Both the position numbers and the translations under genes were made by a program. A stretch of 64,000 bases of DNA from Treponemataceae bacterium (GTDB lineage Bacteria > Spirochaetota > Spirochaetia > Treponematales > Rectinemataceae). This document shows positions 7,905-24,979 of the stretch, in pieces (positions within the stretch are counted from its first letter, which is position 1; every line of letters begins with the position of its first letter). The DNA lies in the NCBI GenBank assembly GCA_963677895.2, contig CAXXGJ010000025.1:128001-192000 (forward strand), written 5' to 3'. The notes below the pieces were generated by a model. That model saw only the letters and a list, made by a program, of their open reading frames with translations. It did no database searches and was not told the DNA's origin.

Positions 7905-8879
7905 ATGATTGGTGGTAACAGTATGACATCACCAACGACAACCATCGCTTCTGCCCGCGCGGGCAGGACAGGCGGCAGTGGCCTCTGGAAGAGCATCAAG
8001 CGCCACAAATCGGTCTACCTGCTGGCCTCCATCTCCTTTACTTACTTCATCATCTTCAAGTATGTTCCCATCTGGAACGCGCAGATAGCCTTCAAGGATT
8101 TCATGGCCCTCGACGGCGTCCTGGGAAGCCCCTGGGTCGGCCTCCAGAACTTCAAGGATTTCGTCAATTCCTACTATTTCTGGGAACTCATACGCAACAC
8201 GGTGATGTACAGCATCGGCAAGATGATCTTCTCCATTCCCGCCGCGATTTTCCTGTCGGTGACCCTCTACGAGTGCCGCGTCTATTTCCTGCGCAAGTCG
8301 GTACAGACCCTCGCCTACCTGCCCCACTTCCTTTCCTGGGTCATAATGTACGCCATCCTTCTCGCCATCCTTTCGCCCTCGAACGGCATCGTCAACGACG
8401 TCATCAAGCTCTTCGGCGGCGAGCCGATATCCTTCCTCACCGACGCGAAGGCCTTCCCGTGGATCGTCATCCTCTCGGACATGTGGAAGGAAATGGGCTG
8501 GAGCGCCATCATCTTCCTCGCGGCGCTTATGGGCATCGATCCTTCGCTCTTCGAAGCCGCCACCGTCGAAGGCGCCAGCGCCTGGCAGCGCGTGCGCTAT
8601 ATCACCCTGCCCTCGATCCGCCCCGTCATCGTGATGGTTTTCCTCCTGAGGCTGGGAACCATACTGGACGCCGGCTTCAACCAGATATTCATGCTCTATT
8701 CGCTGCCCGTATACAGCGTGGCCGACATCATCGACACATGGATATACCGCCAGGGGCTCCTGGAATTCCGCTTCGGGCTGGCGACGGCAGTAGGTCTCTT
8801 CAAAGGAGTGTTCGGCCTCATTCTCATCGTGGTTTCCAACAGGCTTATCCGCAAACACACCGATTCCGGGTTGTACTAA
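7905..8879 (+). CDS. Carbohydrate ABC transporter permease (LplB/YteP-like)
   Basis: SPWVGLQNF, YLPHFLSWV, EAA loop LFEAATVEGAS. Confidence 0.9.
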   Translation: MIGGNSMTSPTTTIASARAGRTGGSGLWKSIKRHKSVYLLASISFTYFIIFKYVPIWNAQIAFKDFMALDGVLGSPWVGLQNFKDFVNSYYFWELIRNTVMYSIGKMIFSIPAAIFLSVTLYECRVYFLRKSVQTLAYLPHFLSWVIMYAILLAILSPSNGIVNDVIKLFGGEPISFLTDAKAFPWIVILSDMWKEMGWSAIIFLAALMGIDPSLFEAATVEGASAWQRVRYITLPSIRPVIVMVFLLRLGTILDAGFNQIFMLYSLPVYSVADIIDTWIYRQGLLEFRFGLATAVGLFKGVFGLILIVVSNRLIRKHTDSGLY

Positions 8880-8893
8880 TGAGGTATGGAAAC

Positions 8894-9778
8894 ATGAAAA
8901 GCAGCATCCGACTGACAAATAGCGATAAATTCTTCCACTTCCTCGTCAATACGAGTCTTTTCGTCATTCTCGCGATTTTCGTGATACCTATATGGAGCAC
9001 GATAACCCTTTCATTCCGCCCCAACACCTTCATCGGATCGGCGCTGGACGGCATGCTCCTGGCGCCCTGGAAATGGTCGACATCGGCCTACGAAGCCCTC
9101 CTCGGCCACAGGGCCTTCCTGACCTCGACCTTCAACAGCTTCCGCATATTCTTTCAGGGTGTGGCCACCGCACTTTTCCTCACGGTGCCCCTCGCCTACA
9201 TACTGTCGATCAAGACCCTGCCGGGGCGCAAGATTCTCTACGGCATCGTCATCATCCCCTATCTTTTCAATGTGGGACTCATCCCCAACTACCTACTCGT
9301 GGCCAAGCTCGGCCTCATGGACAAGCTGGCCGCCGTCTACCTGCCGGGGGCTATCAGCGTCTACAACACCCTCATCATGAAGAGCTTCTTCGAGGGAATC
9401 CCCGATGAGCTCAAGGAATCGGCGCGCATCGACGGGGCTTCGGAGATCACTGTTCTCTTGCGGATCATCCTCCCCCTCTCCAAGCCCATACTCCTGACGA
9501 TAGGCCTCTATTATGGGGTGCATTTCTGGAACGATTTCTTCAACGCCATGCTCTACCTCAACGACAGCGCCCTCCAGCCCCTCCCCATCCTCCTGCGCAA
9601 CATTCTCCTGTCCTCGGGGATGAACGAATATGTCGAAGTGAACGCCTTCGGCGAGGCGCCCATCGCCGCCATCAAGGCCGCCAGCGTACTTTTAGCGGCG
9701 ATTCCCATGCTCATCGCCTATCCCTTTATCCAGCGTTATTTCGTAAAAGGGACGATGCTGGGAAGCGTGAAGGGCTGA
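8894..9778 (+). CDS. Carbohydrate ABC transporter permease 2
   Basis: C-terminal part of ORF 8273..9778; ATG at 8894 after GAGG; ESARIDGA loop, YPFIQRYFVKGTMLGSVKG. Confidence 0.9.
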   Translation: MKSSIRLTNSDKFFHFLVNTSLFVILAIFVIPIWSTITLSFRPNTFIGSALDGMLLAPWKWSTSAYEALLGHRAFLTSTFNSFRIFFQGVATALFLTVPLAYILSIKTLPGRKILYGIVIIPYLFNVGLIPNYLLVAKLGLMDKLAAVYLPGAISVYNTLIMKSFFEGIPDELKESARIDGASEITVLLRIILPLSKPILLTIGLYYGVHFWNDFFNAMLYLNDSALQPLPILLRNILLSSGMNEYVEVNAFGEAPIAAIKAASVLLAAIPMLIAYPFIQRYFVKGTMLGSVKG

Positions 9779-9833
9779 ATCGGGTTCCATATCGGGGCTT
9801 TTGTCCCCGTCGCGATAGATCAAGGAGGTTTCC

Positions 9834-11387
9834 ATGAAACGAACAATCAGAATCATGATGACGCTCATTCTCGCCATGGTCTGCATCGGATCGACATTCG
9901 CCCAGGGGGCGAAGCCGGTGACGATCGAGATGTGGTATGGAGCGGCCATCACCGAGGCGGGCCCGCCCCCCGACGACTGGGTGGTCTACAAGATACTGCG
10001 CGAAAAATACGGGATCGAGCTCAAGATCACGGCCGAGCCTTCGAACGAGAACGACCAGGACGTGAAGATTCTGGCCGCGGCGGCTGCCAACCAGCTGCCC
10101 GACCTCTTCATGGTGCGCCGCGATCCCTGGCAGACCTTGATCAAGCAAGGCCTCGTGGCCCCCATAAACGACATGTATCCTCTCATGCCCAACAGGGCCG
10201 AGAATCATTTCAACGAGGATTCCATCGCCTTCTCGACGATCAGGGGCAAAAGCTACGGTTTCGCCTTCCCCGGCTCCCTCCAGAAGAACGAAGGCCTCGT
10301 CATCAGGAAAGACTGGCTCGACAAGCTCGGCCTCAAGATGCCAACCACCCTCGACGAGCTCTACGATGTCTGCTATGCCTTCACCTTCAAGGATCCCGAC
10401 GGCAACGGCAAGAACGACACCTACGGCTACGGCGCCTTCGTCGAGCTTTTCGACCAGGAGCAGTACCTCGGCAGGCGCTTCGAGCCCATCATGGGCGCCT
10501 TCGGCGTGGCCGGCACCTGGAACATGACCGAGAAGAATTTCGGACTCAACGCGAAAAAGCCCGAGTTCTTTGAAGCCCTCAAGTTCGTCAACAAGATGGT
10601 GGAGAACAAGGTCGTCGACCCCGACTGGCCTTCCCTCAAGAAGGACGATTTCCGCGCCGCCTGGAAACAGGGCAAGTTCGGCGTGATGAGAGAGCAGAAT
10701 GCCGCCCTCGCCGCCCAGGCCAACTACGCCCCCTTCGACAAGAATTTCCCCAACGGTGAATGGGTCGCGCTTCCCCCTCCCAAGGGTCCGAAAGGTCTCG
10801 CCGCCACGGGCGTCATGGATGCCAACTACAGGATCTATGCCGTCTCCCCCAAAGCCATAAAGGCCGGAAAGAAGGAAGCGATCGCCAAATTCCTCGACTG
10901 GATGGCTTCCGAAGAAGGCTATAAGCTCATCGGCTGGGGCGTCGAAGGCGTGAACTATTCACTCGACGCGAACGGCGACATCACGGAGAAGAACGTACCC
11001 GCCGACACCAAGTTCTCGTCTCCCAAGGGACAGACGGTCACGCAGCTCCGCAATATGGTTTTCTACAACAGCACCCTCGAGCTCAACGCCCGCTATCCCT
11101 ATTTCACGACCGCCAATGGCCGCAAGATCGGCCCCCTGGGTTACCTGAAGTCCTTCCAGTCCTATCCCTGGATCAACGTGACGGGTATGGGCACGATAGC
11201 CCCCTCCCCGAACAACGCCGACCTCAAGCGCTTCATCAACCAGGGCGTTCAGGAATTCGTACTGGGCAAGACGGCGCTGACGAAGGAAAACTTCGACGCT
11301 TTCGTGACCCAGATGGACAAGCTGGGCGCCGCTGCCTGGGAAAAGGCCGCCAGGGCGCAGATGGATGAGAACGGATACCTGAAATAA
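9834..11387 (+). CDS. ABC extracellular solute-binding protein (family 1), likely for oligogalacturonides
   Basis: Signal peptide; IRKDWLDKLGL and DPDGNGKNDT motifs; AGGAGG RBS. Confidence 0.9.
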   Translation: MKRTIRIMMTLILAMVCIGSTFAQGAKPVTIEMWYGAAITEAGPPPDDWVVYKILREKYGIELKITAEPSNENDQDVKILAAAAANQLPDLFMVRRDPWQTLIKQGLVAPINDMYPLMPNRAENHFNEDSIAFSTIRGKSYGFAFPGSLQKNEGLVIRKDWLDKLGLKMPTTLDELYDVCYAFTFKDPDGNGKNDTYGYGAFVELFDQEQYLGRRFEPIMGAFGVAGTWNMTEKNFGLNAKKPEFFEALKFVNKMVENKVVDPDWPSLKKDDFRAAWKQGKFGVMREQNAALAAQANYAPFDKNFPNGEWVALPPPKGPKGLAATGVMDANYRIYAVSPKAIKAGKKEAIAKFLDWMASEEGYKLIGWGVEGVNYSLDANGDITEKNVPADTKFSSPKGQTVTQLRNMVFYNSTLELNARYPYFTTANGRKIGPLGYLKSFQSYPWINVTGMGTIAPSPNNADLKRFINQGVQEFVLGKTALTKENFDAFVTQMDKLGAAAWEKAARAQMDENGYLK

Positions 11388-11410
11388 GGCGAAAAAAGAC
11401 TTAAGCTGAC

Positions 11411-11446
11411 AGGCGCGGCCGGGAGTATTCCGGCCGCGCCTCCTTT
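11411..11446 (+). terminator. GC-rich hairpin after the solute-binding protein gene (terminator or mRNA stabiliser)
   Basis: AGGCGCGGCCGG-GAGTATT-CCGGCCGCGCCT with only a weak U tract. Confidence 0.55.
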
Positions 11447-11457
11447 ATGGAACCACC

Positions 11458-12570
11458 ATGGACAAAGCACAACACACAGAATCAGGCAGGCTGCTCACCG
11501 ACCTCGCCGATGCAGCACTCCAGGCCTGCAGACCCGACACGGTGCGCTGGAACTACGAGAACGGCCTCATCCTTCAGGCAGTCAGGGAAGCCTCTAAACG
11601 GCAGCTGGGGAGCACCTATGACGCTGCATTGCGAAAAATCGCCGAAGCCCTCGTCACCCCCGAAGGATTCATCGTCGGCTATAGAACCGACGAATTCAAC
11701 CTGGACCAGATAAACGCTGGCAAATTCGTCTTCTCGATGTGGAAGGACAGCGGCGATAAACGCTATAAAATTGCCCTGGAGCAGCTCATGGAGCAGCTGG
11801 CATCGCATCCCCGCACGCCTTCGGGCTCTTTCTGGCATAAAAAGATCTACCCTAACCAAATCTGGCTGGATGGGCTCTACATGTTCGGCCCCTTCGCCGC
11901 CCGCTGCGCGGCTGAATTTTCCAATCCAGCCCTTTTTGATGATGTCTGCCTCCAGCTTTTCCATGTGAGGGAAAGTATGAAGGACAGGGCTACGGGGCTC
12001 TACTTACACGCCATGGATGAATCGCGTCGCATGGGTTGGTCCAATCCGGGAACGGGGCTTTCGCCCCATATCTGGGGCAGAGCGGTGGGCTGGCTTTCGA
12101 TGGCTCTCATCGACATCCTGGACTGGCTGCCCGAAAGCCATCGAGACAGGCTGGCTGTCGTCGCGATGTTCAAGGATCTCATGAAGTCGGTTGTTGCGGT
12201 CCAGGACGGCTCGGGGCTCTGGTACCAGATCCTCGACATGGCCAGTGAACCTGGCAACTATCTCGAGGAATCGGCTTCGGCCATGTTCGCCTACTCGCTT
12301 TTCAGGGGCATGCGCATGGGAATGCTAAGCCCGGAGACTTTTGCAGTGCCTGCCGAGAGGGCGCTGGCGGGGATCAAAGATCGTTTTGTCTCCCGCGATG
12401 CCACAGGCAGAGTTCATGTGGGCGGCATCTGCAAGGTGGCCGGCCTGGGAGGCAATCCTTATCGCGACGGTTCCTACGCCTATTACATGAGCGAACCTGT
12501 AGTCTCGGATGACTACAAGGGCACTGGTCCCTTGATCCTCGCGCTCTGCGAGGCTTGCGAGAAACTCTGA
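11458..12570 (+). CDS. Glycoside hydrolase family 105/88 (YteR-like unsaturated rhamnogalacturonyl hydrolase)
   Basis: WNYENG, FWHKKIYPNQIWLDGLYM, WGRAVGW, NYLEESASAMF, GLGGNPYRDGS. Confidence 0.9.
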   Translation: MDKAQHTESGRLLTDLADAALQACRPDTVRWNYENGLILQAVREASKRQLGSTYDAALRKIAEALVTPEGFIVGYRTDEFNLDQINAGKFVFSMWKDSGDKRYKIALEQLMEQLASHPRTPSGSFWHKKIYPNQIWLDGLYMFGPFAARCAAEFSNPALFDDVCLQLFHVRESMKDRATGLYLHAMDESRRMGWSNPGTGLSPHIWGRAVGWLSMALIDILDWLPESHRDRLAVVAMFKDLMKSVVAVQDGSGLWYQILDMASEPGNYLEESASAMFAYSLFRGMRMGMLSPETFAVPAERALAGIKDRFVSRDATGRVHVGGICKVAGLGGNPYRDGSYAYYMSEPVVSDDYKGTGPLILALCEACEKL

Positions 12571-12620: not shown

Positions 12621-14702
12621 GTGCGCGCCATGGAATTAAAAAACGTGAAACCAGGATTCCCCGCCTGCCTTGCTATCGTCTTTCTGCTCTCAACAATCGG
12701 GATCTTCCACGCGACAGCACAGACAGGGCAGCCTGGCGACAGCCAGCAGCTCTCCCTGAGCGCTCTTGGCTATGATACTTCCATCGGCCTTGTCCGCGAA
12801 GCCATCGCCCGCGACCTCGCCGTAGGCGTCGCCAGCAGCTCGGTAGCCATAACGGATGGCGGCAGGATCGTCTATTCCGAAGGCTTCGGCATGGCTGACC
12901 GGGAAAGAGACATCGCGGCGGATCGCAATACACTCTTCAACATCGGATCGATCAGCAAAGTCTTCACCGGCGCCGCCCTCATGCTCCTCGTCGACGACGG
13001 ACTTCTCGAACTCGACGATAAAGTGGTCGAGCATTTGCCTGAATTCGCGATGGAAGATCCTCGGCACCGAGACATCACGCTGCGCATGCTCCTCAACCAC
13101 AGCTCGGGGCTGCCAGGCTCCACGCTCTCCAACAGTTTCGGGGCGGAGCGCAATCCGGGGTTCCATGAGCAGCTGCTCTCCACCCTTCGCCGCTCCAAGC
13201 TCCGTTCCGACCCGGGAAAGTTCGCTTCCTACTGCAATGACGGTTTCAGCCTCGCGGAACTCGTTATCGAGCGCGTGAGCGGAAAGCCCTACGAAGAATT
13301 CCTGCGAACGAGGCTGTTCGCACCATTGGGGCTTGAAAAAACCGGCCTGAGCGTCGGGCTTCGTCCCGGGGAAACCAGCGCTGCCTTCTACAGGTCCCAA
13401 GACGGGGCTAAGGATGCTCTGGAGGTGGTGTCTGCCACAGGCGCTGGAGGCATTGCGTCCACTGCCGAGGATCTTTGCCGTTTCGCCGATTCTTTCTCGC
13501 TGGGAGGGACGAGGATTCTTTCCCAGGCATCCCTGCGCGAAATGATGAAGCCGCAGCCTTCCCTCGCGGCTATCGCGGCCGACAGGAATCCGGAGATGCC
13601 CTTCGGGCTGGGCTGGGATGTCGCCCTCCCCTCATTTTACGCCGACAAGGGTATCCAGGTATTCTGGAAGGGGGGAGATACCTACCACTACCACGCCTTG
13701 ATCCTGACAAGCCCCGAACGTCGGCTGAGCCTGACGATCCTCCAGTCCGGCGAGGGCACCGGCCTCATACGCCTCGCGAAGGAGCTATTCGAAAGCCTGC
13801 TTGCCGAAAAAGGCGTCATGGTCGCCCGCCCCCCTATCGCCTCCGTCCCGATTACATACCTGCCTGTGCCCGAGGAGTTTAGGGATTTTGAAGGCTACTA
13901 CGGGCCATCGCTCTTTAGGCTCGCCCTCTCGCCTTCAGGCGATTCCTTCATCCAATACATCTCGATAGGCAGCCAGGAGCTCCCGGTCTTAACCATGCGT
14001 TATACGGGCGGCCATTTCGAGGACGGGCAGGGCGGAAGATACTTCCTTACCCGCATGGGCAGAAAACAGTACTTGGCAGGCTCCATGTTCGATGACTGCA
14101 TAAGGATGGTGATGGGTCAGAGACTGCCGGAAAAGGCTGGGGAACAGACACTGCGTATGAACATCGACGGGAAGGTATGGCTGAAGAGGAGCGTAAAGCC
14201 CTTTGTTACCTCAGGCGACAGCGCCACCCATATCCTCGTTTCGAGTCTCGCCAGTTCCCTTCCCGGCTATGTCGACTTCGCGGGCATCAAGGAAATCACC
14301 GCGCCCGACCGCGCCGGCATGACCATCGAGGCCATCTCGGAACAACAGGAATTGCTGCTGGCAGAAGAGGAGGATCGAGTCTGGGTCTGGCTAGCTGAAG
14401 CCCTCTACTGCCCTGTCGACTCGGCTACAGCCCTCGCTACGGGAGCGAACACTACACGCATAGGGCAAAAGGGTCTCAACGAATGGCGCACGGCCAGCGC
14501 GGAGCGGCTGCTCCGTATCAGCCTTCCTTCATCGGGTAGGCTCATCGTGTTCTCCGCCGATCGCTCGGTCATCCACGACAGCGCCTTCGATACCCACCAT
14601 ACAGGCAGCCTCATTCACGTGGTGGAACTGCGCGTACCGGCCGGCAGCTTTGTGGAACTGGCAGGAAATCCTCAAGACCTATTCAGCATCGTTGTGGAAT
14701 AA
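12621..14702 (+). CDS. Exported serine hydrolase, beta-lactamase/AmpC-like superfamily
   Basis: FNIGSISK (SxxK), LLNHSSG, YCN (YxN), KGGD; N-terminal hydrophobic signal. Confidence 0.85.
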   Translation: MRAMELKNVKPGFPACLAIVFLLSTIGIFHATAQTGQPGDSQQLSLSALGYDTSIGLVREAIARDLAVGVASSSVAITDGGRIVYSEGFGMADRERDIAADRNTLFNIGSISKVFTGAALMLLVDDGLLELDDKVVEHLPEFAMEDPRHRDITLRMLLNHSSGLPGSTLSNSFGAERNPGFHEQLLSTLRRSKLRSDPGKFASYCNDGFSLAELVIERVSGKPYEEFLRTRLFAPLGLEKTGLSVGLRPGETSAAFYRSQDGAKDALEVVSATGAGGIASTAEDLCRFADSFSLGGTRILSQASLREMMKPQPSLAAIAADRNPEMPFGLGWDVALPSFYADKGIQVFWKGGDTYHYHALILTSPERRLSLTILQSGEGTGLIRLAKELFESLLAEKGVMVARPPIASVPITYLPVPEEFRDFEGYYGPSLFRLALSPSGDSFIQYISIGSQELPVLTMRYTGGHFEDGQGGRYFLTRMGRKQYLAGSMFDDCIRMVMGQRLPEKAGEQTLRMNIDGKVWLKRSVKPFVTSGDSATHILVSSLASSLPGYVDFAGIKEITAPDRAGMTIEAISEQQELLLAEEEDRVWVWLAEALYCPVDSATALATGANTTRIGQKGLNEWRTASAERLLRISLPSSGRLIVFSADRSVIHDSAFDTHHTGSLIHVVELRVPAGSFVELAGNPQDLFSIVVE

Positions 14703-14838
14703 GGTGGCCGGCCTGGGCGGGAACCCTTACCGCGATGATTCTTTCGCCTATTACATGAGCGAACCCATCGTGTCCGACGACTTCAAGGGTGCCGGCCCCT
14801 TCATGCTGGCGCTCTGCGAGGCGCTTGCGAATAATTGA
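14701..14838 (+). pseudogene. Orphan second copy of the GH105 3' end (diverged direct repeat of 12433..12570)
   Basis: Reads KVAGLGGNPYRDDSFAYYMSEPIVSDDFKGAGPFMLALCEALANN*; collinear 138 bp match to 12433..12570. Confidence 0.9.
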
Positions 14839-14985
14839 TAGGATTTACAGTTTTTGACAGGATAACAGGATGGGCAGGATTTACAGATAAGAATTTAGGT
14901 AAAGAAAAGAAAGAGCGAAACGATGCTTTTTTCTTTTTTTACCCAAATATTTTCCCGTAAATCCTGTCCTAACGTAAATCCTGTC
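14839..14985. repeat. Long imperfect inverted repeat (REP/MITE-like; possible bidirectional terminator)
   Basis: Reiterated (C)AGGATTTACAG/ACAGGAT on the left, GTAAATCCTGTC twice on the right; inner ATTTAGGTAAAGAAAAGAAAGAGC pairs with a T-rich arm ending TTACCCAAAT. Confidence 0.7.
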
Positions 14986-16247
14986 TAGCTCTTCTCCGCG
15001 AAGCCTGTCAGCGCGTGGGCGACCAGGTTCGTCAGCGATTCCACCTTCATGCCCATCGCGTAGTAGTCATTCAGCTCGGTGAGCTGGGTGTGGCAGTTCT
15101 CGCAGGCGGTGCAGATGATATCGGCGCGGGCTGCCTTGATCTGATCGACCTTCACCTTGGCCGATTTCATGCGGAATTCCTGCTCGCCCATCGAGATGAG
15201 CCCGCCGCCTCCGCCGCAGCACCAGTTTTCCTCGCGGTTCGGCGTGAGTTCTACGAAATCGCCGGTGAGGGCGCCGATAATGCGCCTGGGCTCCTCGATG
15301 ACGCCGCCGTTCCTCGCCAGCTGGCAGGGATCGTGATAGGTGAGACGGCCCTGAAGCGTGCCCGGTTTCAGGGAAATCCTGCCCTCGGCGATATAGCGGT
15401 CGATAAGCTCCACGATCGAAGTCACTTTGAAATCGTGCTTCCCCGATTGGAACTTCATGACGCGGGTGGCCGTGCCGCATTCCACGACGACGACTTCCTT
15501 CACGTTGAGGCGGATGGCCTCGTCGACGATGCGCTGGGAAATCTTCGCCTGTTTTTTGGCGTCGCCCAGCCAGGCGGCGAAATTGACCGCCTCGAAATAG
15601 CTCAAGGTCCAGTTTTCCTTCGCGGCGTTCATGATGGCCGCGGCCGGAATGATGGAGTGCGCGCCCGAGAGCCCGACATAGAGAACATCGGCGTCCTGGA
15701 CATCGACGGGGATCGTCTTCCTGCCTTCGGGCGTCGGAGCCAGGGCTTCCACCTGGGATTCGAGATTTTTGATGGCTTCCCTATAGTTTTCGCCCGACTC
15801 GACAAAGGTCTCGCCCTTGGCGATCGACATGTCGGAGAGCATCGCGAGAAGCTGAGGCTGCCGTTCCACGCCGATGAGGAGAAGCTTGGCTATGCCCATG
15901 ACCTGCTGGGTGTCGATGCCGAAGGGGCAGAAGCCGATGCAGCGGCGGCAGCCCGTGCAGGAAAAGGCGGCTTCGTAAGCCTTGTCCATGCCGATATCGC
16001 CGAAGGAAATCGTCTCGCCGAGCCAGGGCGCGAACTTGCCTTGAAGCTTGAAATAGCGCTTGAAAAGCTTGCGGATCACCTCGGCTCTGCCGACGGGCGT
16101 ATATTTGGTCTCGGGCATCGACGCGTAGACGTGGCAGGCTTCGACGCAGAGCCCGCAGCGAGCGCAGGTGTCTAGGTAAAGACGCATGGCCTTGTTGAGC
16201 TTCGTCTCGAAAAGGCGCTTCAGATGGCCGGTCGTTATATCATCCAT
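14985..16247 (-). CDS. Fe-S oxidoreductase with CCG domain (DsrK/HdrD/TmcB-like)
   Basis: CARCGLCVEAC and CTGCRRCIGFC 4Fe-4S motifs; YHDPC...CCGGGG...CTACENC. Confidence 0.85.
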   Translation of the reverse strand: MDDITTGHLKRLFETKLNKAMRLYLDTCARCGLCVEACHVYASMPETKYTPVGRAEVIRKLFKRYFKLQGKFAPWLGETISFGDIGMDKAYEAAFSCTGCRRCIGFCPFGIDTQQVMGIAKLLLIGVERQPQLLAMLSDMSIAKGETFVESGENYREAIKNLESQVEALAPTPEGRKTIPVDVQDADVLYVGLSGAHSIIPAAAIMNAAKENWTLSYFEAVNFAAWLGDAKKQAKISQRIVDEAIRLNVKEVVVVECGTATRVMKFQSGKHDFKVTSIVELIDRYIAEGRISLKPGTLQGRLTYHDPCQLARNGGVIEEPRRIIGALTGDFVELTPNREENWCCGGGGGLISMGEQEFRMKSAKVKVDQIKAARADIICTACENCHTQLTELNDYYAMGMKVESLTNLVAHALTGFAEKS

Positions 16248-16250
16248 GGC

Positions 16251-16988
16251 TTACCTCCTTCTCAGCATATTCAGCGGCAGGCTGAAGAATATGTGCACGA
16301 TCTTGCTGAAAGGCAGGATCATCATGAAAAGTTCAGCCAGGAAGACATGAAGCACGATGAAATGATAATGCGAACCATGCAGTACGAGTCTGGGGTTCAT
16401 GAAAGTGAAGCTCGAGAGGATGCCGAAGTAGCCGCGGAAATTGGCCTTCGTCATGACAAAGCCTTTGGCGGTCCAGGAATTTCCCCAGCTGATCATATCG
16501 CCCAGAAGGAAGGTGAAGAGAAGGAGAAGGAGGAGCAGATAGTCGGCGGGCACCGAGATATGCCTGTTCTCGCCCTTGAATCGCCTGAAAAGAAAATAGA
16601 AGGCGGGAACCGTGACCGAAACGCCGACGAATCCCGCGCCCACCATGTGGCGTGAAGCCGCCGGCACGATGTTGATGCCGGGGAAGAGGTCCAGATGGCC
16701 CAGGATCAGGAAGGCGATGCCCAGATGGAACCACATGAGGAAAAACCAGAAGACCGGTTTGCGCTTTCTGATCATCGGCATGCCGAAGGCGTCGCCCAAA
16801 GCCGCCAGGGCCGGGCGCTTCCTCGCGGGGAAGGTTTTCAGGCTGTAGGCGGGTGCGGGAGAGGAAATGATGGAGGCGATCTTCACGGCGATGCCGACGA
16901 CCATGACGGTGATGGAGATATAGACGAGAGGCACCATGATGAAGTAGTAGAGGCCATCCAGGAAAAGGGCGAAGCCAGTAGGGGCCAC
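16251..16988 (-). CDS. NarI/DsrM-like membrane b-type cytochrome
   Basis: About five TM helices; FHLGI...GH, LHVFLAEL and PFSKIVH His ligands. Confidence 0.8.
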   Translation of the reverse strand: MAPTGFALFLDGLYYFIMVPLVYISITVMVVGIAVKIASIISSPAPAYSLKTFPARKRPALAALGDAFGMPMIRKRKPVFWFFLMWFHLGIAFLILGHLDLFPGINIVPAASRHMVGAGFVGVSVTVPAFYFLFRRFKGENRHISVPADYLLLLLLLFTFLLGDMISWGNSWTAKGFVMTKANFRGYFGILSSFTFMNPRLVLHGSHYHFIVLHVFLAELFMMILPFSKIVHIFFSLPLNMLRRR

Positions 16989-16997
16989 GGCGAGGCC

Positions 16998-17237
16998 TTA
17001 CTTTTGTCGCTTCACGTAGAAGCGGATAAGGCCGGAATCTTGTTTCGTTTCGAGAACGGCATTGCCTGTCGATTTAGCCCAGGAAGGGACATCGGCGAGG
17101 GAACCCGGATCGGTGGAGAGCATCTCGACGACCTCTCCCACCTTCATCTTCGCGACTTCCATGCTGAGCTTGACGATGGGCATCGGGCAGGCGAGCCCTT
17201 TGCAGTCGAGCGTTTTCGTGACGGCGTAATCAGACAT
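16998..17237 (-). CDS. tusA: TusA-family sulfur carrier
   Basis: LDCKGLACPMP motif, TDPGS, 79 aa. Confidence 0.88.
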   Translation of the reverse strand: MSDYAVTKTLDCKGLACPMPIVKLSMEVAKMKVGEVVEMLSTDPGSLADVPSWAKSTGNAVLETKQDSGLIRFYVKRQK

Positions 17238-17264
17238 ATATTTCTCCTTAAGCGAAAAACTTGA

Positions 17265-17801
17265 TCAAATGAATAACTGGACGGCTGATTCCTTGGCGTC
17301 CGCGAGGAAGGAAGCCACCCCGACGACTTTCATGCCGGGATAATCGATCATCTCTTCCATCTTCATCCCCATGAGATCCATCGACATCTGGCAGATATTG
17401 ATTTCGACGCCCAAGGCTCCGGCCGCTTCGAAAAGCTGATCCAGGCTGGCGACGTTTTTTTTAGTCATGAGGCTTTTGAGCATCGCGGTGCCGGCGCCCG
17501 CCATGTTCATCTGCGAAAGCTTCAGCTTGTTGCGTCCTTTCGGGAGCATGAAACCGAACATCTTGCCCATGAAATCCTTGCCGCCTGCCTTCTTGGAAGG
17601 ATCGCGCAGGGCGGCGGTTCCCCAGAAGGTATAGAAAAGCACGACCTTCATGCCCATGGCGGCGGCGCCGGTGGCGATGATGAGGGATGCTATCTGCTTG
17701 TCGAGTTCGCCCGAAAAAACGACCATGGAGAGCTTGTTCTCCATGCCGGGGGCGGAGTTCACCTTAGCCTTGAGCTCACTGAGCTCTTTTTCGATGTCCA
17801 T
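17265..17801 (-). CDS. DsrE2/DrsE-like (DsrE/F/DrsH family) sulfur-transfer protein
   Basis: VFSGELDK, FYTFWG, LSQMNMAGAG, ICQMSMDLMG with conserved Cys. Confidence 0.88.
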   Translation of the reverse strand: MDIEKELSELKAKVNSAPGMENKLSMVVFSGELDKQIASLIIATGAAAMGMKVVLFYTFWGTAALRDPSKKAGGKDFMGKMFGFMLPKGRNKLKLSQMNMAGAGTAMLKSLMTKKNVASLDQLFEAAGALGVEINICQMSMDLMGMKMEEMIDYPGMKVVGVASFLADAKESAVQLFI

Positions 17802-17824
17802 AGAGTGTTTTCCTTGAGAGAACG

Positions 17825-18127
17825 CTAGTTGTCGCCAGCGCGGCAGCTTTCGAGACAGTGGAGGAGTTCGACGAGATGAGGTTGGGCGAGGCGATAGACG
17901 GCGAAGCCGTTTTCCCTGCGGAATTCGACGAGATCGGCCATGCGGAGAATGCGCAACTGTTGGGAGACGAGCGACTGCGGGACGGCGAGCCGCTCCGTTA
18001 GGTCGCTTACGTGCGCTTCGCCGCCGCAGAGCTGGGCGACTATCATGAGACGTATCGGGTGAGAAAGAGCCTTGAGTATTTCGGCAATATCGGCCGCGCG
18101 CGCCGAATCGTTCTTCAGGTCGCTCAT
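17825..18127 (-). CDS. ArsR/SmtB family transcriptional repressor
   Basis: LKALSHPIRL, SQQLRILR HTH; three Cys. Confidence 0.9.
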   Translation of the reverse strand: MSDLKNDSARAADIAEILKALSHPIRLMIVAQLCGGEAHVSDLTERLAVPQSLVSQQLRILRMADLVEFRRENGFAVYRLAQPHLVELLHCLESCRAGDN

Positions 18128-18149
18128 CGGAATATCCGCTTCCTCAGGA

Positions 18150-18215
18150 TATAGTGTTATCTTTATATCGCTATATCTTTATAAAACTATATTCCGTCGG
18201 CGCGCGCATGTCAAT
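18150..18215 (-). promoter_or_regulatory. Promoter and candidate ArsR operator of the sulfur operon
   Basis: Minus strand TTGACA...TATAGT followed by ATAAAGATA twice. Confidence 0.5.
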
Positions 18216-18219: not shown

Positions 18220-19875
18220 TCAGGCGCCGGCCATCATCGCTTCCACGTCGGCGTCGGCGCCGCCTATACCCTTGATGCCGAATTTCTCGACGAGGACAGT
18301 CGCGACGGCGGGCGACAGGAAACCGGGGAGCGTCGGTCCGAGCCTGATGTTCCTGAATCCGAGGTACAGCAGGGCGAGCAGTACCAGCACGGCCTTCTGC
18401 TCATACCAGGCGATGTCGAAGGACAGGGGCAGCTTGTTCACGTCGTCCAGGCCGAAGATTTCCTTGAGCTTGAGAGCGATGAGGGCGAGCGAATAGGAGT
18501 CGTTGCACTGGCCGGCGTCGAGGACGCGGGGAATGCCGCCGATGTCGCCCAGATTCAGTTTGTTGTAGCGGTACTTCGCGCAGCCCGCGGTGAGGATGAC
18601 GGCGTCCTTGGGCAGCTTTTCCGCGACGTCGGTATAGTAGGAACGGCCGGGCTGGCGGCCGTCGCAGCCGGCCATCACGACGAAGCGTTTGATGGCGCCG
18701 GTTTTCACCGCGTTCACCACGGTGTCGGCCAGGGCGAAGACCTGGTCGTGGGCGAAGCCGCCGACAATCTCGCCGTTTTCGATTTCGGTTGGAGGCGGGC
18801 ATGTCTTGGCCAGGGCGACGATGGCGGAAAAATCCTTCATTTTACCGGGAGCGCGGTCCTCGATATGGACGCAGCCCTCGAAACCGACGACGCCGGTGGT
18901 GAAGACGCGCGCCTTGTAGCTTTCCCTGGGGGGAACGAGGCAATTCGACGTGAAGAGAACGGGGCCATGGAAGTTCTCGATGTCGCCGTTCTGGCTCCAC
19001 CAGGAGCCGCCGTAGTTTCCGTAGAGATTGTCGTACTTATCAAAGAAGGGATAGTAGTGGGCGGGCAGCATCTCGCCGTGCGTATAGACGTCGACACCCG
19101 TGCCCTTGGTCTGCTCGAGAAGGTCCTGGAGGTCGACGAGGTCGTGGCCCGAGATGAGGATGCCCGGCCTGTCGCGGACGCCGGTCTTCACGTTAGTGAC
19201 GCGGGGATTTCCGTAGGCTCCCGAATTGGCGCCGTCGAGCAGCGCCATGGCCTTTACGCCGTATTCGCCCGTCTCGAGGACGAGGGCGGTGAGCTGGTCG
19301 AGGCTCTTCGTGGCGTCGGTGAGGTCGGCGAGGGCGCGCAACATGAATTTGAACACCTCGGGCGACTTTTTGCCGATAGCCCAAGCGTGCTCGACGTAGG
19401 CGGCCATCCCTTTGAGCCCGTAAAGAACGAGGGATTGGAGGGCACGGACATTTTCGTCGGCGATTTCCTTCCAGCCGCCCTTGCCCTGGGAGGCCGCGGC
19501 GCGCAGGGCTTCGGGGCTGGCCGCCGTCCAGGTGGCCGCGTCGGGAAGGGATCCGCTCGTCTTGACGCCGGCCTTGGCGCAGGCGGCCCTGAGATTTTCG
19601 CGATATCCAAGACCTTCGAAGATCCAGCGCTCGAAATCCCGGTTCGAAAAATTGGCGTTGGTGATGGTGGCGAAAAGCATCCTGTCCACGAAGAATGCCG
19701 CGGCTTCGTCGTAGATTCCCTTTTCGGCCGCTTTCGTGGCCCAGAATCCAATACCTTTGCACACATGGATCATGAGATCCTGCAGATCCGACACTTCGGC
19801 GGTCTTGCCGCATACGCCCTTGGCCGCGGCGCAGCCCGAGTTTTTCATTGTTTCCTGACACTGATGGCAGAACAT
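18220..19875 (-). CDS. hcp: Hybrid cluster protein (hydroxylamine/NO reductase)
   Basis: MFCHQCQET...C...[33 protein letters not shown]; start set at the Met after GGAGG. Confidence 0.95.
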
Positions 19876-19934
19876 TTCCACCTCCCGCATCTATGCGTGT
19901 AATCGGCGCCCCAGGGGCGGCCGTTGGGTTTCCC

Positions 19935-20366
19935 CTATTCCAATGCTCGATCGACGCGGGAAAAACTGCGGGCGATATCGTCTATCGTCGTGTTTTCGAG
20001 CGTCGCTCTCACTTTTTCTTCCACATCGTCGCAAAGCGACTTGAACGCGCATGTTTTCGTCGCGCATATGGCGCGCTCGAAGAGGCAGTAGTTGGAGGGC
20101 AAGGGCCCGTCGAGCGCCTCGAGCACTTCCATGCAGGGCATTTCGGAGGCGGGCTTGAGCAGGGAAAAGCCGCCGCCGATGCCGCGCACCGAGGCGATGA
20201 TGCCCTTGGCGGCGAGGCTCTGCAGAATCTTGGCCAGGTAGCTGGGAGAGACGCCGAGACGCTCGGCGGCGGCCTTCGCGGCGATCGAGCCGCCGTCGCG
20301 GGATGCCAGCGCGAGAGCGTGGAGCGCGGCGTTCGTTCTATCCGAGATCGCCAGTACTCTGTCCAT
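19935..20366 (-). CDS. Rrf2 family regulator with three clustered C-terminal Cys (probable Fe-S/NO sensor)
   Basis: SYLAKILQSL, SVRGIGGGFSL, CLFERAICATKTC. Confidence 0.9.
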   Translation of the reverse strand: MDRVLAISDRTNAALHALALASRDGGSIAAKAAAERLGVSPSYLAKILQSLAAKGIIASVRGIGGGFSLLKPASEMPCMEVLEALDGPLPSNYCLFERAICATKTCAFKSLCDDVEEKVRATLENTTIDDIARSFSRVDRALE

Positions 20367-20501: not shown

Positions 20502-23500
20502 TCAGACCCGGGTGAGGTTTTCGATCGTCAGGCTTATGGCGCCCCTGTTGTTCTCGACGAGGCCGGCGATCCAGAGCGGGTGTTCTTCGAAGAGCAGGTG
20601 GCGGTATTTGCGGTAGGCCTCGGGAAAGAGAACCGCCTCGAAGATGGCCGTCTCGTCTTCGAAGGAGACGAACTCCATGGTTTCCTCGCTGGAGGTGAGG
20701 ACGGGCTTGGCCGTTATGGGCCAGCCGAGGAGGCGGACGCGGCGGCCCACGTTGCGCCGCAGGTCGATGGCGCGCTCGCGGGGGGCGGCAAAGGCGCGCG
20801 GCCAGAGCTCCAGGGGATGGGAATCAAGGGTGGTGCCGAGGTATTTGAGCTCGGCGACGCGCTTCTTGCGCGTGGAGCCTGGAGGGGGTTCGGGAGCGCG
20901 CGGCGCCGGGGTGTGCGGCTCGCGGGCGCGGGACGCCTGAGCGCGGGGCTCCAGGCGGCGGGGCTCAGGGACGAGGCTTTCGCCATCGGGCGCGAAAAGT
21001 TCGAGCGGCCTGCCGGCGGCTAGGGAAGCGCCTGAGGTTCCAGGGAGGCAGGAAGCCCCGGGGCCGCCCGAGGTGGCGGGGCCTCCCGCCACGCCCTCGC
21101 GCGCCGCGCAGAGGGAAAGGAGAACCATGAGGGCGTCGGAGCGTTTCGCGCCTCCAAGGAGGCTGTCGAAGGCACCCGAGCCCACCAGGGCTTCGGCGTC
21201 GGTCCGCTCGAAGCGCTGGCGGCGCGCGAAGTCCTCGACGGAAAGGTAAGGCCCTCCCCGCTTCCGTTCGCGGAGCATGTCGGCGGCGACGCCCGCGCCG
21301 AGCGAGGAGAGCATGCAGAAGCCGAAGCGGATCTTGCCTCTTCGACCCCTGCATCGCTGGTCGCTCAGGTTGATGTCGGGAGGAAGGAGGGCGAGCCCCA
21401 TCCGCCTCGATTCGCTCGCGTAGGCAAGCGTGGAGTAGAATCCCCCGTGGTTGGAGAGGACGGCCGCCATGAACTCGGCGGGATAGTGGGCGCGCAGGTA
21501 GGCGGACTGGAAGGAGAGCATGGCATAGCTGGCGGAATGGGCCTTCACGAAGGAATAGCCTGAGAACGAACAGATCATGGCCCAGACCGCCTCGGTGCTG
21601 ACCTCGTCGGCGCCCTGCGCCGCGGCGCCTTCGAAAAAAGCGCTCCTGTATTCCTGGAGCCTGGTGTCGGCGTCCTTCTTCGAAAGGATCTTGCGGATGC
21701 CGTCGGCTTCGGAAGAGGAGAAGCCGGCGAGGGCTATGGCCGCCTTCGACACGTCCTCCTGGTAGCAGAGGATGCCGTAGCTTTCGTCGAAAAGCCCTTT
21801 GAGAAGGGGATGAAAGGCCTTCCAGGACTTGCCCCGCAGGCGATCGACATATTCGTCTATATATTTGTTCGCCGCGGGACGGATGATGGACGAATGGATG
21901 ACAAGGTGCTCGAAATCCCCCCTCCCCGTCTTGATCTGCAAAAGGCGCATGGCGGGGCTCTCCACGTAGAAGACGCCCATCGTGTCCCCCCGCGCGAGAA
22001 GGGCGACCGTGTCGGCGTCGTCGATCGGCTTCCATTTTCCCGTATCGAAGGACGGATCGTTTTCGCGCAGGTCGGCAAGCGCGTCCCTGACGACGGCGAG
22101 CGAGCGGTTTCCGAGAAGGTCTATTTTCACGAGGCCAGCCTCCTCCGCCCCCTCCTTGTCCCAGGCGATCACCCTTATGCCATTGCCCGTCTCCTCGACC
22201 GGAACGTGGTCGACCAGATTGTCCGGCACGATGATGACGCCGCCCGAATGCGTGCCCAGATGCCGCGGCAGGCCGACGATGCCCGCCGCCCGCCGCGCGA
22301 TGATCTTCCATTCGGGATCGGCCGAAGAGAGGGTCCCGTCGGTATCCACCTTGAGGGAGCGCTCGAAGTCCGAAATCTCGGCGTCGGGCATGCCGAAGGC
22401 CCTGGCGGTTTCGCGCAGGCCCGAGCGCGAGCGGAAGCAATTGTGGTTGGCCACCCTGGCCGTATGCTCGGGCCCGTAGGCTTTCACCACTTCGTCCAGG
22501 AGGGCGTCGCGCTCGTCCCAGGCGAAATCCACGTCGATGTCGGGCGGGTCTTTCCGCCCCGGGTTCAGGAAACGCTCAAAGTAGAGGGAATGGCGGATGG
22601 GATCGACCTCGGTGATGCCGAGGCAGTAGGCGACGATGCTCGCGGCCGCGCTGCCGCGGCCGCATATGCGCGATGCCTTCTTTATTATGTCCCAGACCAC
22701 GAGAAAATAGTCGCAGAATCCCTTGGACTCGATGAGCGCAAGTTCGCGCTCGATTCTCGCTTTCACCTCGGCGGTCACGGGCGAGTAGCGCCACGCCGCG
22801 CCTTCGTAGACGTAACGGCGAAGAAGTTCGGAGGATGAGGCCTCGGGGCTTGCCCTATGCGTCGCTTCCGAAACGGCGGCAGGGCTTTCCATATGGGTCT
22901 TTTCCGGAACGGCGGCGGCCGCCATTCCGAAACGGGGGAAGACAAAGCCCGAAAATGGCTCTCCCAGGGCTTCGCGCGCGATGAGGGCGTTGAAGGCGAA
23001 GGCTTCCTCCATCCACGCGGCCTGGGAAGGGAGAACGGCCCAGGGGCCGGCGGCCGGGACGACATCTGGGCCGGCACCTGGAGCGGCGGCTGAAGCGGCG
23101 GCCGGGACGGCATTCCAGAGCGCCTCGGGCGGGTCCAGCAAGTCGTCGCCGATATCGTGGATCGTGAGGTTCGCGCCGATGGCAAGAAGCAACCGCTGAA
23201 CTTCGCGCTGCTCCGGCTCGAGAAAGCTCGCCTCTGGCGTCGCGACGGGCCTGTGGCCTGAGGCGGCGAGGCGGCGCCACTTGGTTCTGTTGCAGGGCGT
23301 GACGAGGGCGAAGAGGTAATAGCGGGGTGAAAAGCGCGCGAGGAGGTTCTCGTCGTCCGTGAGGATGAAGAGGTCGCAGGAGCTTGCTTCCAGGATGCCA
23401 GCCACGGCTCCCCGGAGATCGTAGGGGGGAAGGCGACCCTTTCCGCGACGCTTCGCCGGCCTATCGGCCTTTTCGGCCGCCTCCGCGGTCGCGGAGGCGG

Positions 23501-23783
23501 CAGCCCTCGCGGTCAGGAGCCGCGAAATCGCCGAAAATCCCGCCTTCGTCGCGGCGATGAGGACGGCGCGGCCTCCTTCATACACAAGCTCCGTTCCGAC
23601 GATCGGTTTCAAGCCCGCCTTTCGGCAGGCCTCCGTGAAGGTGGGGAGGCCATAGACGCCGTTCCGGTCCGTCAGCCCGAGGCGCGGCAGGCCTGCTGCC
23701 TTCGCCGCCGCCACCCACGCCGCGGGCTGGACGACGCCGCGCATCATCGAGTAGGAGGAGCGGACGACGAGGGGCACGAGCAT
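20502..23783 (-). CDS. dnaE2: Error-prone DNA polymerase III alpha subunit (DnaE2/ImuC)
   Basis: PHP LGLTDRNGVYG, GRGSAA, FERFLN...PDIDVDF, PRHLGTHSGG, GYSFVKAH, C-terminal OB fold; follows imuB. Confidence 0.88.
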   Translation of the reverse strand: MLVPLVVRSSYSMMRGVVQPAAWVAAAKAAGLPRLGLTDRNGVYGLPTFTEACRKAGLKPIVGTELVYEGGRAVLIAATKAGFSAISRLLTARAAASATAEAAEKADRPAKRRGKGRLPPYDLRGAVAGILEASSCDLFILTDDENLLARFSPRYYLFALVTPCNRTKWRRLAASGHRPVATPEASFLEPEQREVQRLLLAIGANLTIHDIGDDLLDPPEALWNAVPAAASAAAPGAGPDVVPAAGPWAVLPSQAAWMEEAFAFNALIAREALGEPFSGFVFPRFGMAAAAVPEKTHMESPAAVSEATHRASPEASSSELLRRYVYEGAAWRYSPVTAEVKARIERELALIESKGFCDYFLVVWDIIKKASRICGRGSAAASIVAYCLGITEVDPIRHSLYFERFLNPGRKDPPDIDVDFAWDERDALLDEVVKAYGPEHTARVANHNCFRSRSGLRETARAFGMPDAEISDFERSLKVDTDGTLSSADPEWKIIARRAAGIVGLPRHLGTHSGGVIIVPDNLVDHVPVEETGNGIRVIAWDKEGAEEAGLVKIDLLGNRSLAVVRDALADLRENDPSFDTGKWKPIDDADTVALLARGDTMGVFYVESPAMRLLQIKTGRGDFEHLVIHSSIIRPAANKYIDEYVDRLRGKSWKAFHPLLKGLFDESYGILCYQEDVSKAAIALAGFSSSEADGIRKILSKKDADTRLQEYRSAFFEGAAAQGADEVSTEAVWAMICSFSGYSFVKAHSASYAMLSFQSAYLRAHYPAEFMAAVLSNHGGFYSTLAYASESRRMGLALLPPDINLSDQRCRGRRGKIRFGFCMLSSLGAGVAADMLRERKRGGPYLSVEDFARRQRFERTDAEALVGSGAFDSLLGGAKRSDALMVLLSLCAAREGVAGGPATSGGPGASCLPGTSGASLAAGRPLELFAPDGESLVPEPRRLEPRAQASRAREPHTPAPRAPEPPPGSTRKKRVAELKYLGTTLDSHPLELWPRAFAAPRERAIDLRRNVGRRVRLLGWPITAKPVLTSSEETMEFVSFEDETAIFEAVLFPEAYRKYRHLLFEEHPLWIAGLVENNRGAISLTIENLTRV

Positions 23784-23785
23784 GG

Positions 23786-24979
23786 TCAGGCCCTCCCTTC
23801 CGACAGGCGGGGGACGAGGATGCCGGCCGTCATGAACGCGCAGGGAGTCAGGGCGACAAATCCATATTTTCGGTGAACCTTGTCCAGGGCCGTCTGCAGC
23901 CGCGCTGACTTCGATTCCGAGGGCTCGAAGAGGTCGAGTTCGGGCCCCGCCGCGCCGAATTCGGAAAGCTCGACGCCGAGGCGGCGCACCCGCACGCGGC
24001 GCTCCATGGCTCGCTGGGCTATGTCCCAGGCCATGGCGGCGATCTCGTCGTCCCTCGTGAGGATGCGCGGCGACCGGGCCGAAGCTGAGGCGAAGCGCCC
24101 GTCGCTGTAGTCGATCCTGAGCGTCACCTTCCGCGCGCCGAGGTTTTCCTTGCGCGCGGCGAAGCCGAGGGTCGCCGCGAGATAGGCGAGATGAAGGCGG
24201 AGCGCCTCCTGCTCGGCGGTGTCGGGCTCGAGAACCGCGGAATCCCTGAGGCAGCGCCTTTCGGGGGGCTCGGGATTGACCGGCGAATCGTCGATGCCTC
24301 TCGCCCTCGCCACGAGGTCGGGTCCGCGGGGGCCGATGGCCCTCGCCTGAAAGGCTCCAAGGTCGGCTATCCCGCCGATATCGTCGATATCGAGGAGACT
24401 GAGCCTGTCCTTGAGCACCGGGCCCACGCCGGGCAGAAGCTCCACGGGCTGAAGCCTGACAAGGCTGGATTCCTCGTGCGGAAGGAGGGCGACGAAGCCG
24501 CCCGGCCTGAATACCCTGGTGGCCACCTTCGACACCGTCTTGTTCGAGGCGAGAGCGAGGCTCGGCTGAATGCCGGTCTCCTCCATTATTCTAATCCGGA
24601 TCTTTTGGGTCGCGTCCTCAGGCACGCCGTTTATGCGAGAGGTTCCCGCCAGATCGATGAAGAGATGTCCCTGCCCGGCCTTCTCGACGAGGGGAGAAAA
24701 GGACATGCCGATCTCCCACATGGCGTCGTCAGCTTTTCGGTACAGGTCAGGGTGAGGAGGCCTCACCGCGAGGCCGGGAAGACGGTGCCGCGCCAGCGAC
24801 AGCATCATGCCCCGCCTGATGCCTTCCCTGTGCGCTTCCGGCGAAAGATCGAGGACGATGGCGCGGGCAGCTCCCTCCCTCGCGACCACGAAGGGACGTG
24901 ACCTGAGGCTGCGGTCCAGCCCCTCCTCGATGGCGGCCATGAGACCCACGGCGTTGACGTGGAGGACCGTGCCGCCCAT
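23786..24979 (-). CDS. imuB: Y-family polymerase homolog lacking catalytic acids (ImuB-like)
   Basis: HVNAVGLMAAIE in place of HxDxDxFyAsvE; GQGHLFID in place of SIDEAxLD; LPGVG HhH; ELDLF clamp-like motif. Confidence 0.75.
   Translation of the reverse strand: MGGTVLHVNAVGLMAAIEEGLDRSLRSRPFVVAREGAARAIVLDLSPEAHREGIRRGMMLSLARHRLPGLAVRPPHPDLYRKADDAMWEIGMSFSPLVEKAGQGHLFIDLAGTSRINGVPEDATQKIRIRIMEETGIQPSLALASNKTVSKVATRVFRPGGFVALLPHEESSLVRLQPVELLPGVGPVLKDRLSLLDIDDIGGIADLGAFQARAIGPRGPDLVARARGIDDSPVNPEPPERRCLRDSAVLEPDTAEQEALRLHLAYLAATLGFAARKENLGARKVTLRIDYSDGRFASASARSPRILTRDDEIAAMAWDIAQRAMERRVRVRRLGVELSEFGAAGPELDLFEPSESKSARLQTALDKVHRKYGFVALTPCAFMTAGILVPRLSEGRA

Follow-up and report, generated by a model that had tools for sequence, protein, structure and literature searches.

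A conserved operon for TusA- and DsrE-type proteins and a DsrMK-like membrane pair in a Rectinemataceae genome, with a possible role in sulfane sulfur reduction

Introduction

The membrane pair DsrMK has been described as an enzyme with menadiol:DsrC-trisulfide oxidoreductase activity, with menadiol driving the release of sulfide (PMC10861901). In a preprint (bioRxiv 10.64898/2026.08.25.746951), Cys329 of DsrK was persulfidated and was proposed to relay sulfur from the substrate, a one-Cys DsrC intermediate. In Bacteroides fragilis, a fusion of CoA-disulfide reductase (CoADR), rhodanese, TusA and DsrE (BF638R_0572) is repressed by a MarR protein, and cells that have lost it are more sensitive to diamide (PMC6158253). 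The present study concerns a five-gene operon that codes for an ArsR-type repressor, a DsrE-type protein, TusA, a predicted NarI/DsrM-type cytochrome (here termed M) and a DsrK/HdrD-type subunit (termed K). It is located in a stretch of 64,000 nucleotides (the window) from a Treponemataceae bacterium (GenBank assembly GCA_963677895.2, contig CAXXGJ010000025.1, positions 128,001 to 192,000), and coordinates of the operon and its surroundings are those of the window.

In the wider literature, DsrMK is treated together with DsrAB/DsrC, and related carriers with YTD clusters or sHdr relays (PMC10504309, PMC6378623, PMC8528874, PMC12998232 and PMC13490349; the same ground is covered by PMC11094781, PMC4175335, PMC9431562 and PMC5127849). 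The nearest described case was that of Desulfurella amilsii, with dsrE-like genes inside a full dsrABC-MK operon (PMC6378623). A search of full-text literature, with subscription papers and supplements outside its reach, found no description of a dsrE-tusA-M-K cassette. The operon is real and strongly conserved and, to all appearances, undescribed. The preferred reading, to which a probability of about 0.5 is given, is that its products form an enzyme of the DsrMK/HdrED superfamily that does not depend on DsrC, has its own carriers and reduces carrier-bound sulfane sulfur to sulfide via menaquinol. An initial annotation of the window had reported the five genes and proposed a persulfide-reducing module without DsrC; its observation was confirmed, and its interpretation was supported in part.

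Results

All five genes are at the place given in the initial annotation, as a tightly spaced, co-directional set on the minus strand. Along the operon they are arsR (17825-18127), the DsrE-type gene (17265-17801), tusA (16998-17237), the M gene (16251-16988) and the K gene (14985-16247), with intergenic gaps of 23, 27, 9 and 3 nucleotides from arsR to K. A sigma70-like promoter (TTGACA-17-TATAGT, 11/12 consensus matches) is located on the same strand at 18186..18214, where it sets the operon off from the rrf2-hcp pair upstream, and just downstream of its -10 box is a 12-6-12 inverted repeat (18148..18177, minus strand), the predicted ArsR operator. Because the promoter is near-consensus and the gene order is kept across phyla, the five-gene operon was not considered a product of chance. 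The other open reading frames of the window that were scanned for domains included no dsr or sHdr gene, as had been claimed, and K, M, TusA and DsrE are each present in a single copy in the host genome.

Conservation was surveyed by scanning 22 of the 64 parts of GTDB for K. The best 79 of approximately 1800 estimated stretches, many of which are surely other CCG proteins, were retained; the proteins encoded there are 48-98% identical to K, and the loci belong to Spirochaetota, Bacillota, Desulfobacterota, Myxococcota, Eisenbacteria and Aminicenantes. For the count of gene order, a locus needed 2.2 kb or more of upstream sequence; 66 qualified, and the 13 short loci were set aside. The order dsrE-tusA-M-K was present in 61/66 loci and all four genes in 63/66; in the other five, M and tusA were swapped (two loci), dsrE was missing (one), or only M-K was found (two). 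ArsR precedes this four-gene core in just 14/66 loci; elsewhere MarR takes its place or ArsR is absent. A profile of the cassette TusA was also run against 120 other genomes of the phylum, and all six of its matches (6/6) were between dsrE and M-K. The linkage of tusA and dsrE to M-K, on which the initial annotation depended, was borne out by both counts. No tusA or dsrE was found within 1.5 kb of DsrK, TmcB or HmcF paralogues. The recurrent neighbour clusters and the open reading frames of the window contained no yedE plus conserved hypotheticals, and no shdr-lbpA genes beside tusA-dsrE. A plasmid search returned one distant match (29%).

For the survey of dsr genes, 50 of the 79 carrier genomes were used; these were chosen towards non-Desulfobacterota, and most are incomplete metagenome-assembled genomes (MAGs). 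DsrC was found in 20, DsrA in 17 and neither in 30. Among the carriers free of both are an isolate, Rectinema subterraneum, and two records whose contigs reach multi-megabase length. A separate canonical DsrK was present in three of the five carriers tested.

M contains the NarI domain (PF02665, 36 bits, above the cut-off) and five hydrophobic regions. Its haem histidines (His88, His98, His214 and His232) are arranged with NarI-type spacing and were kept in 77, 76, 77 and 77 of 77 sequences, respectively. M could be aligned with NarI at all four histidines with no long insertion; glycines occur at 97, 117, 119 and 122, and the Gly-His and the glycines around the quinol site are kept. M is predicted to be a dihaem cytochrome of the NarI/DsrM type, as annotated initially, and its glycine pattern resembles that of the quinol-accessible DsrM-1 type of the preprint cited above.

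K comprises a Fer4_8 domain and one CCG stretch. The two 4Fe-4S motifs (CxxCxxCxxxC) and the single intact CCG domain that had been ascribed to it were found; the five-Cys CCG motif (C308, C343, C344, C382 and C385) is that of a non-cubane cluster, and a lone Cys257 is located in the motif ECGTA. The cluster cysteines and Cys257 were all invariant, DsrC-free carriers included, and the invariant catalytic residues match the DsrK set of PMC10861901 and of the preprint cited above. ECGTA was present in 79/79 sequences, as compared to GECGH in DsrK, a count partly biased by the presence of ECGTA in the search pattern. The fifth CCG ligand is Cys, as in HdrD, and is Asp in DsrK. Of the NCBIfam models, DsrK (NF045796) was the best match at 238 bits, well under its cut-off of 400; the scores against TmcB and HmcF were 209 bits (cut-off 735) and 182 bits (cut-off 750). 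Identity between K and a canonical DsrK is 24%, and a PDB sequence search found no DsrK entry. Its AlphaFold model (predicted local distance difference test score, pLDDT, 90) matches the folds of EtfD, LutA-LutB and HdrB. A quick IQ-TREE analysis was carried out with 56 of 108 extracted proteins, none of them HdrD, and with support from the Shimodaira-Hasegawa-like approximate likelihood-ratio test (SH-aLRT) only. In this tree, a version of which had been suggested with the initial annotation, 42 K proteins formed one clade (SH-aLRT 97) that adjoins DsrK (86, not starred) and is apart from the TmcB and HmcF clades.

Several variant loci were encountered. L122 (G041:C1:6461167-6465429) is a second, divergent dsrE-tusA-M-K cassette with ECGHG, in a genome that also holds the common cassette type and a canonical DsrK. 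In L105 the cassette is in tandem duplication. At L078:2221-10365, a K-family protein and M, without TusA or DsrE, are part of an HdrA/MvhD cluster that also contains two more HdrD-like genes and one for a metallo-beta-lactamase-fold protein.

The DsrE-type protein (DrsE_2, PF13686, 170 bits) has a single Cys, Cys137, which was invariant (68/68). It had been annotated as a DsrE2 with a conserved Cys; the Cys stands, and the label does not, as the score against NCBIfam DsrE2 (NF047629) was 65 bits (cut-off 210) and the protein has only one weakly hydrophobic segment and one Cys where the DsrE2 of the A. vinosum type has two transmembrane helices and two conserved cysteines. The closest PDB entry was 3pnx. 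The protein is regarded as a DsrE-fold, putative sulfur carrier. TusA (PF01206, 85 bits) contains the expected CPxP motif in the form CPMP, and its Cys17 was invariant in 71/71 sequences. With a mean column identity of 69%, the cassette proteins constitute a subfamily of their own: the cassette profile scored them at >80 bits and the TusA domains of CoADR-rhodanese-TusA-DsrE fusions at 33-45 bits.

TTGACA is kept upstream of arsR also in loci L021, L023, L036 and L039. In its arms, the inverted repeat agrees at 22/24 positions with the perfect palindrome found in the same-genus locus L021 and, with that palindrome as the reference, was the sole site with at least 19/24 matches across the 3.5 Mb host genome. 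Such a repeat was significant (0/300 shuffles each) in 9/11 arsR loci, with 14/300 and 12/300 in the remaining two, and was found in 0/10 loci without arsR. Given that the operator match is unique in the genome and tied to arsR loci, ArsR probably controls this operon alone. The repressor (HTH_5 domain, ArsR/SmtB family) has the cysteines that had been noticed (Cys34, Cys91 and Cys95); among 17 aligned ArsR proteins, Cys91 and Cys95 were present in 10/17 and Cys34 in 9/17. The further claim that it is a persulfide sensor of the BigR/SqrR type was not upheld. In that type a helix-2 Cys is paired with a helix-5 Cys, and ArsR has Ala at the aligned helix-2 position; it scored 74 bits against NCBIfam BigR (cut-off 155). 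MarR is upstream in place of ArsR in 27 loci (L076-L113), with an adjacent Cys-Cys pair in 26/27, and a CsoR/CstR-family repressor neighbours the cassette in L071. CstR, a member of the CsoR family, senses persulfide. In 18 loci the cassette has FadL/TodX-type channel genes as neighbours; FadL channels serve the passage of hydrophobic solutes.

Directly upstream of the operon (18220-20366) are rrf2 and then hcp (hybrid cluster protein, above the cut-off), with a promoter of their own at 20480-20453 (11/12 matches) and a linkage to the cassette that is limited to close kin. They were ruled out as operon parts on the basis of the separate promoters and of a linkage in only 1/79 GTDB loci. A sequencing run labelled as metatranscriptomic, in which contigs of a relative cover dsrE, tusA-M and K, was considered as evidence of expression and was uninformative, because the contigs also cover 18/30 bins of the neighbouring 20 kb.

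The cassette was compared with the CoADR-rhodanese-TusA-DsrE fusion in 25 genomes of the host's family. The K protein was found in 16 (three of them cut by contig ends), the fusion in 8, both in 1 and neither in 2. Fisher's test gave p 0.0005, which is overstated because kin are not independent. This near mutual exclusion points to reactive-sulfur disposal. A quinone prenyltransferase was tried as a separator of cassette and fusion genomes and was discarded, with PF01040 in 22/24 family genomes. In one of the two genomes with neither system (G014), a dsrE-tusA pair is joined to HdrL/DsrL-like flavoprotein, HdrA/QmoB-like and QmoC-like genes (L206:1246-7838, G014:C8). The carriers are linked in different genomes to M-K, to the fusion reductase and to Hdr/Qmo-like genes; the dsrE-tusA pair therefore seems to plug into three redox machines. 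In an Oscillospiraceae MAG (L049:5160-12534), the cassette is directly followed by the fusion and a weakly SQR-III-like flavoprotein.

The host assembly is 92.8% complete, 5.5% contaminated and Rectinemataceae-like; the nearest named relatives of K among the matches listed are Rectinemataceae (98% identity). Searches of the genome for dsrA, dsrC and NrfD/DsrP, with dsrB outside the search, found none of them, so that no full dsr pathway turned up that could employ the pair. Neither cytochrome bd nor NrfA was found. The genome has Rnf, [FeFe]-hydrogenase-type motifs (custom patterns), a stand-alone CoADR-rhodanese, only a single further CCG protein that resembles K, and a GlcD/GlcF-like pair on C9 and a GlpA-like gene on C17 as quinone-reducing candidates. 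It also has c-type cytochromes with ResBC, and ubiD-mqnP-ubiX with an ABC (ATP-binding cassette) importer. At L169:6472-12121 (G000:C25), ubiD-mqnP-ubiX precede genes for an NMT1-type binding protein and the ABC transporter, without mqnA/D; together these form a candidate operon for salvage of a menaquinone precursor. At 52156-54814 of the window, a twin-arginine (Tat)-exported C_GCAxxG_C_C protein with two CxxCH motifs is encoded beside ResB/ResC cytochrome c maturation genes, and at L220:4894-7416 (G000:C38) a Tat-exported flavocytochrome-c-type flavoprotein and a tetrahaem cytochrome c are encoded beside tatABC.

Elsewhere in the window, pectin-degradation genes (GH28, pectinesterase and GH88) occupy 1640-12570, and a DnaE2-like polymerase and a DUF72 gene are at 20502-25935. 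Just beyond K, approximately 120 bases at 14701-14838 are a partial duplicate of the upstream GH88 gene (11458-12570), whose 3' end they repeat.

Discussion

In the preferred reading, the menaquinol-dependent reduction of carrier-bound sulfur, Cys137 of the DsrE-type protein and Cys17 of TusA would collect reactive sulfane sulfur. TusA would then deliver it to K by direct contact, and Cys257, like Cys329 in DsrK, would relay it to the non-cubane cluster. The electrons would come from menaquinol and reach K through M, and the sulfur would leave as sulfide. Expression would be induced by release of ArsR from its operator, and M-K would be loaded with scavenged haem. All of these steps, the reductive direction included, are inferred. 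Of the two roles initially offered, an electron sink or detoxification, the latter fits better: a soluble CoADR-rhodanese is present in the host anyway, which disfavours a growth-supporting sulfur sink. Detoxification is most likely the main role here, and any effect as an electron sink would be minor. The sulfur-stress neighbours seen elsewhere, i.e. the fusion and SQR-like gene in L049 and the CsoR/CstR-family repressor in L071, support a role in disposal.

A number of observations weigh against this proposal, and its chief weak point is the direction of electron flow. Menaquinol (ca. -70 mV) is a weak donor for sulfane sulfur (organic trisulfides, -346 mV; PMC10861901), and a source of quinol is hard to name: no complex I subunit was found in G000, G001 or G002 (for the host, subunit D), and an Ndh-2 domain was not found in the host, in a search whose control was detected in only 3/14 genomes. 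HemA, HemB, MenB and MqnA/D gave no matches in the host, and HemB was present in 2/16 family carriers of the cassette. M-K would therefore need scavenged haem and a quinone precursor, both of which the host, to judge from its gene content, probably acquires; the presence of genes for cytochrome c maturation with no match to HemA or HemB likewise implies haem scavenging. Two single-base frameshifts, from either assembly error or decay, set the host ubiD apart from two same-genus copies that are intact. The position of DsrK His331 is Thr in K (79/79, again partly biased by the search pattern), and four M-K carriers lack PF13686 genome-wide. The DsrE2B of M. cuprina did not react with any sulfur compound tried (PMC4175335). 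The exclusion of cassette and fusion is also imperfect, as L049 and G077 hold both, and a CoADR match in 23/24 family genomes likewise speaks against the cassette as a strict stand-in for the soluble enzyme. With a stand-alone CoADR-rhodanese in the host and CoADR in most of its kin, DsrE and TusA could serve CoADR instead. Finally, Rectinema cohabitans, in which the presence of the cassette was not checked, reportedly did not reduce sulfur compounds (PMC6052044).

The want of an evident quinol source and the apparent absence of haem synthesis make the opposite direction a serious rival, although we hold it to be rather unlikely. K would then join sulfide and TusA-SH to give TusA persulfide, with M passing the electrons to menaquinone; together with the stand-alone, NADH-dependent CoADR-rhodanese of the host, this could provide a sulfur-shuttled route from NADH to quinone, or a supply of persulfide for biosynthesis. 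That direction is thermodynamically easier, being downhill. It would also suit a host in which searches for complex I and Ndh-2 gave no match and which yet has a Tat-exported flavoenzyme and tetrahaem cytochrome c in need of quinol. DsrMK, TusA and DsrE run oxidatively in sulfur oxidizers (PMC10504309, PMC11094781), and the dsrE-tusA pair of G014, with its HdrL/HdrA/QmoC-like genes, indicates that the carriers fit varied quinone modules. On the other hand, the cassette takes the place of a reductase fusion in the family, a repressor-controlled operon suits a stress response more than a housekeeping electron route, and other quinone-reducing candidates (GlcD/GlcF-like and GlpA-like) are present. 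The carriers of the cassette are anaerobes with few high-potential sinks, and the host lacks matches to cytochrome bd and NrfA.

M-K might instead be a general thiol-disulfide reductase of oxidative or thiol stress. In place of a persulfide, it would then act on a mixed disulfide of TusA/DsrE, on a thiosulfonate, or on CoA disulfide or another small-molecule disulfide. The diamide phenotype and MarR control of the B. fragilis fusion (PMC6158253) point that way, as do the HdrD-like fifth CCG Cys of K, its Thr in place of DsrK His331 and the position of the operon behind rrf2-hcp in the host genus; TusA of M. cuprina, moreover, bears thiosulfonate and not persulfide (PMC4175335). This is judged improbable given that a single CCG cluster with a lone relay Cys is the pattern of DsrK and not the two-cluster disulfide pattern of Hdr, that bacterial TusA and DsrE3 proteins bind polysulfide sulfur (PMC11094781), that FadL-type channel genes are beside the cassette in 18 loci, and that the hcp linkage is local (1/79). 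Least credible of all, and very improbable, is a view of M-K as an orphan or spare DsrMK with DsrC as its substrate; in genomes without DsrC it would be a remnant, or DsrC would have been missed, and tusA and dsrE would be no more than co-regulated neighbours. DsrK is the best NCBIfam match of K and its neighbour in the tree, and DsrC occurs in 20/50 carriers, most of which are incomplete MAGs. However, 30/50 have neither DsrC nor DsrA, among them the R. subterraneum isolate and the two records with multi-megabase contigs; the catalytic residues are invariant in the DsrC-free carriers; and K shares only 24% identity with a canonical DsrK, while canonical DsrK is found in the same genomes.

It is suggested tentatively, and with more doubt than confidence, that M-K represents a third substrate class of the Hdr/DsrK enzymes, a TusA-persulfide:menaquinone oxidoreductase that is widespread in fermenters and sulfate reducers, connects sulfane sulfur of the cytoplasm with the quinone pool and works without DsrAB/DsrC or a molybdenum polysulfide reductase. 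If so, organisms classed as fermenters could respire or cycle sulfur with haem and quinone that they scavenge, the system could replace NADH dehydrogenase by way of a sulfur shuttle, and it could serve as a model of DsrMK before its recruitment by DsrC. The question bears on the handling of elemental-type sulfur by anaerobes that have neither Dsr nor polysulfide reductase. A two-subunit enzyme and an 8.6 kDa one-Cys carrier make a simple, testable system, also for how a single-cluster DsrK works; a cultured carrier (R. subterraneum) exists, and the predicted operator is defined.

Comparison with known systems

The cassette has the core of DsrMK(JOP), namely a NarI-type subunit with four haem histidines and a catalytic subunit with two cubane motifs, one CCG and a lone ECG Cys, which is sister to DsrK in the tree; in both, the likely substrate is protein-bound sulfur. 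In contrast to DsrMK(JOP), the host searches gave no DsrA, DsrC or NrfD/DsrP, and the cassette carries TusA and DsrE and its own repressor and operator. K is shorter than DsrK (420 residues, as compared to ca. 540-550), falls below the DsrK cut-off and outside the DsrK clade, and differs in ECGTA for GECGH, with its His331, and in a fifth ligand Cys for Asp. By these sequence comparisons, M-K would work like DsrMK or HdrED and yet is not a DsrMK member. Annotating such K proteins as DsrK would wrongly signal sulfate reduction in metagenomes.

TmcB/TmcC, HmcF/HmcE and HdrED share the superfamily and the M-K architecture with the cassette. Unlike K, TmcB and HmcF are in separate clades and within multihaem periplasmic complexes, and K is an orthologue of neither; HdrD has two CCG clusters, as opposed to the one of K, and a small-molecule substrate. 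The rhd-tusA-dsrE2 relay, the sHdr-linked TusA/DsrE and the YTD cluster likewise encode TusA and DsrE-type carriers together in sulfur metabolizers. The cassette, however, lacks rhodanese, YedE, LbpA and sHdr genes and therefore belongs to neither the YTD nor the sHdr group, its DsrE is below the cut-off for the DsrE2 of the rhd-tusA-dsrE2 relay, and its linked enzyme is the membrane pair M-K. The fusion typified by BF638R_0572 has the same carrier pair (PF01206, then PF13686), tied to a reductase and placed under a redox-type repressor, and is found in most family genomes that lack the cassette. Whereas that fusion is soluble, driven by FAD and NADH, and combines the carriers with rhodanese in one polypeptide, the cassette encodes the same pair of carriers as separate proteins beside a predicted membrane-bound dihaem enzyme.

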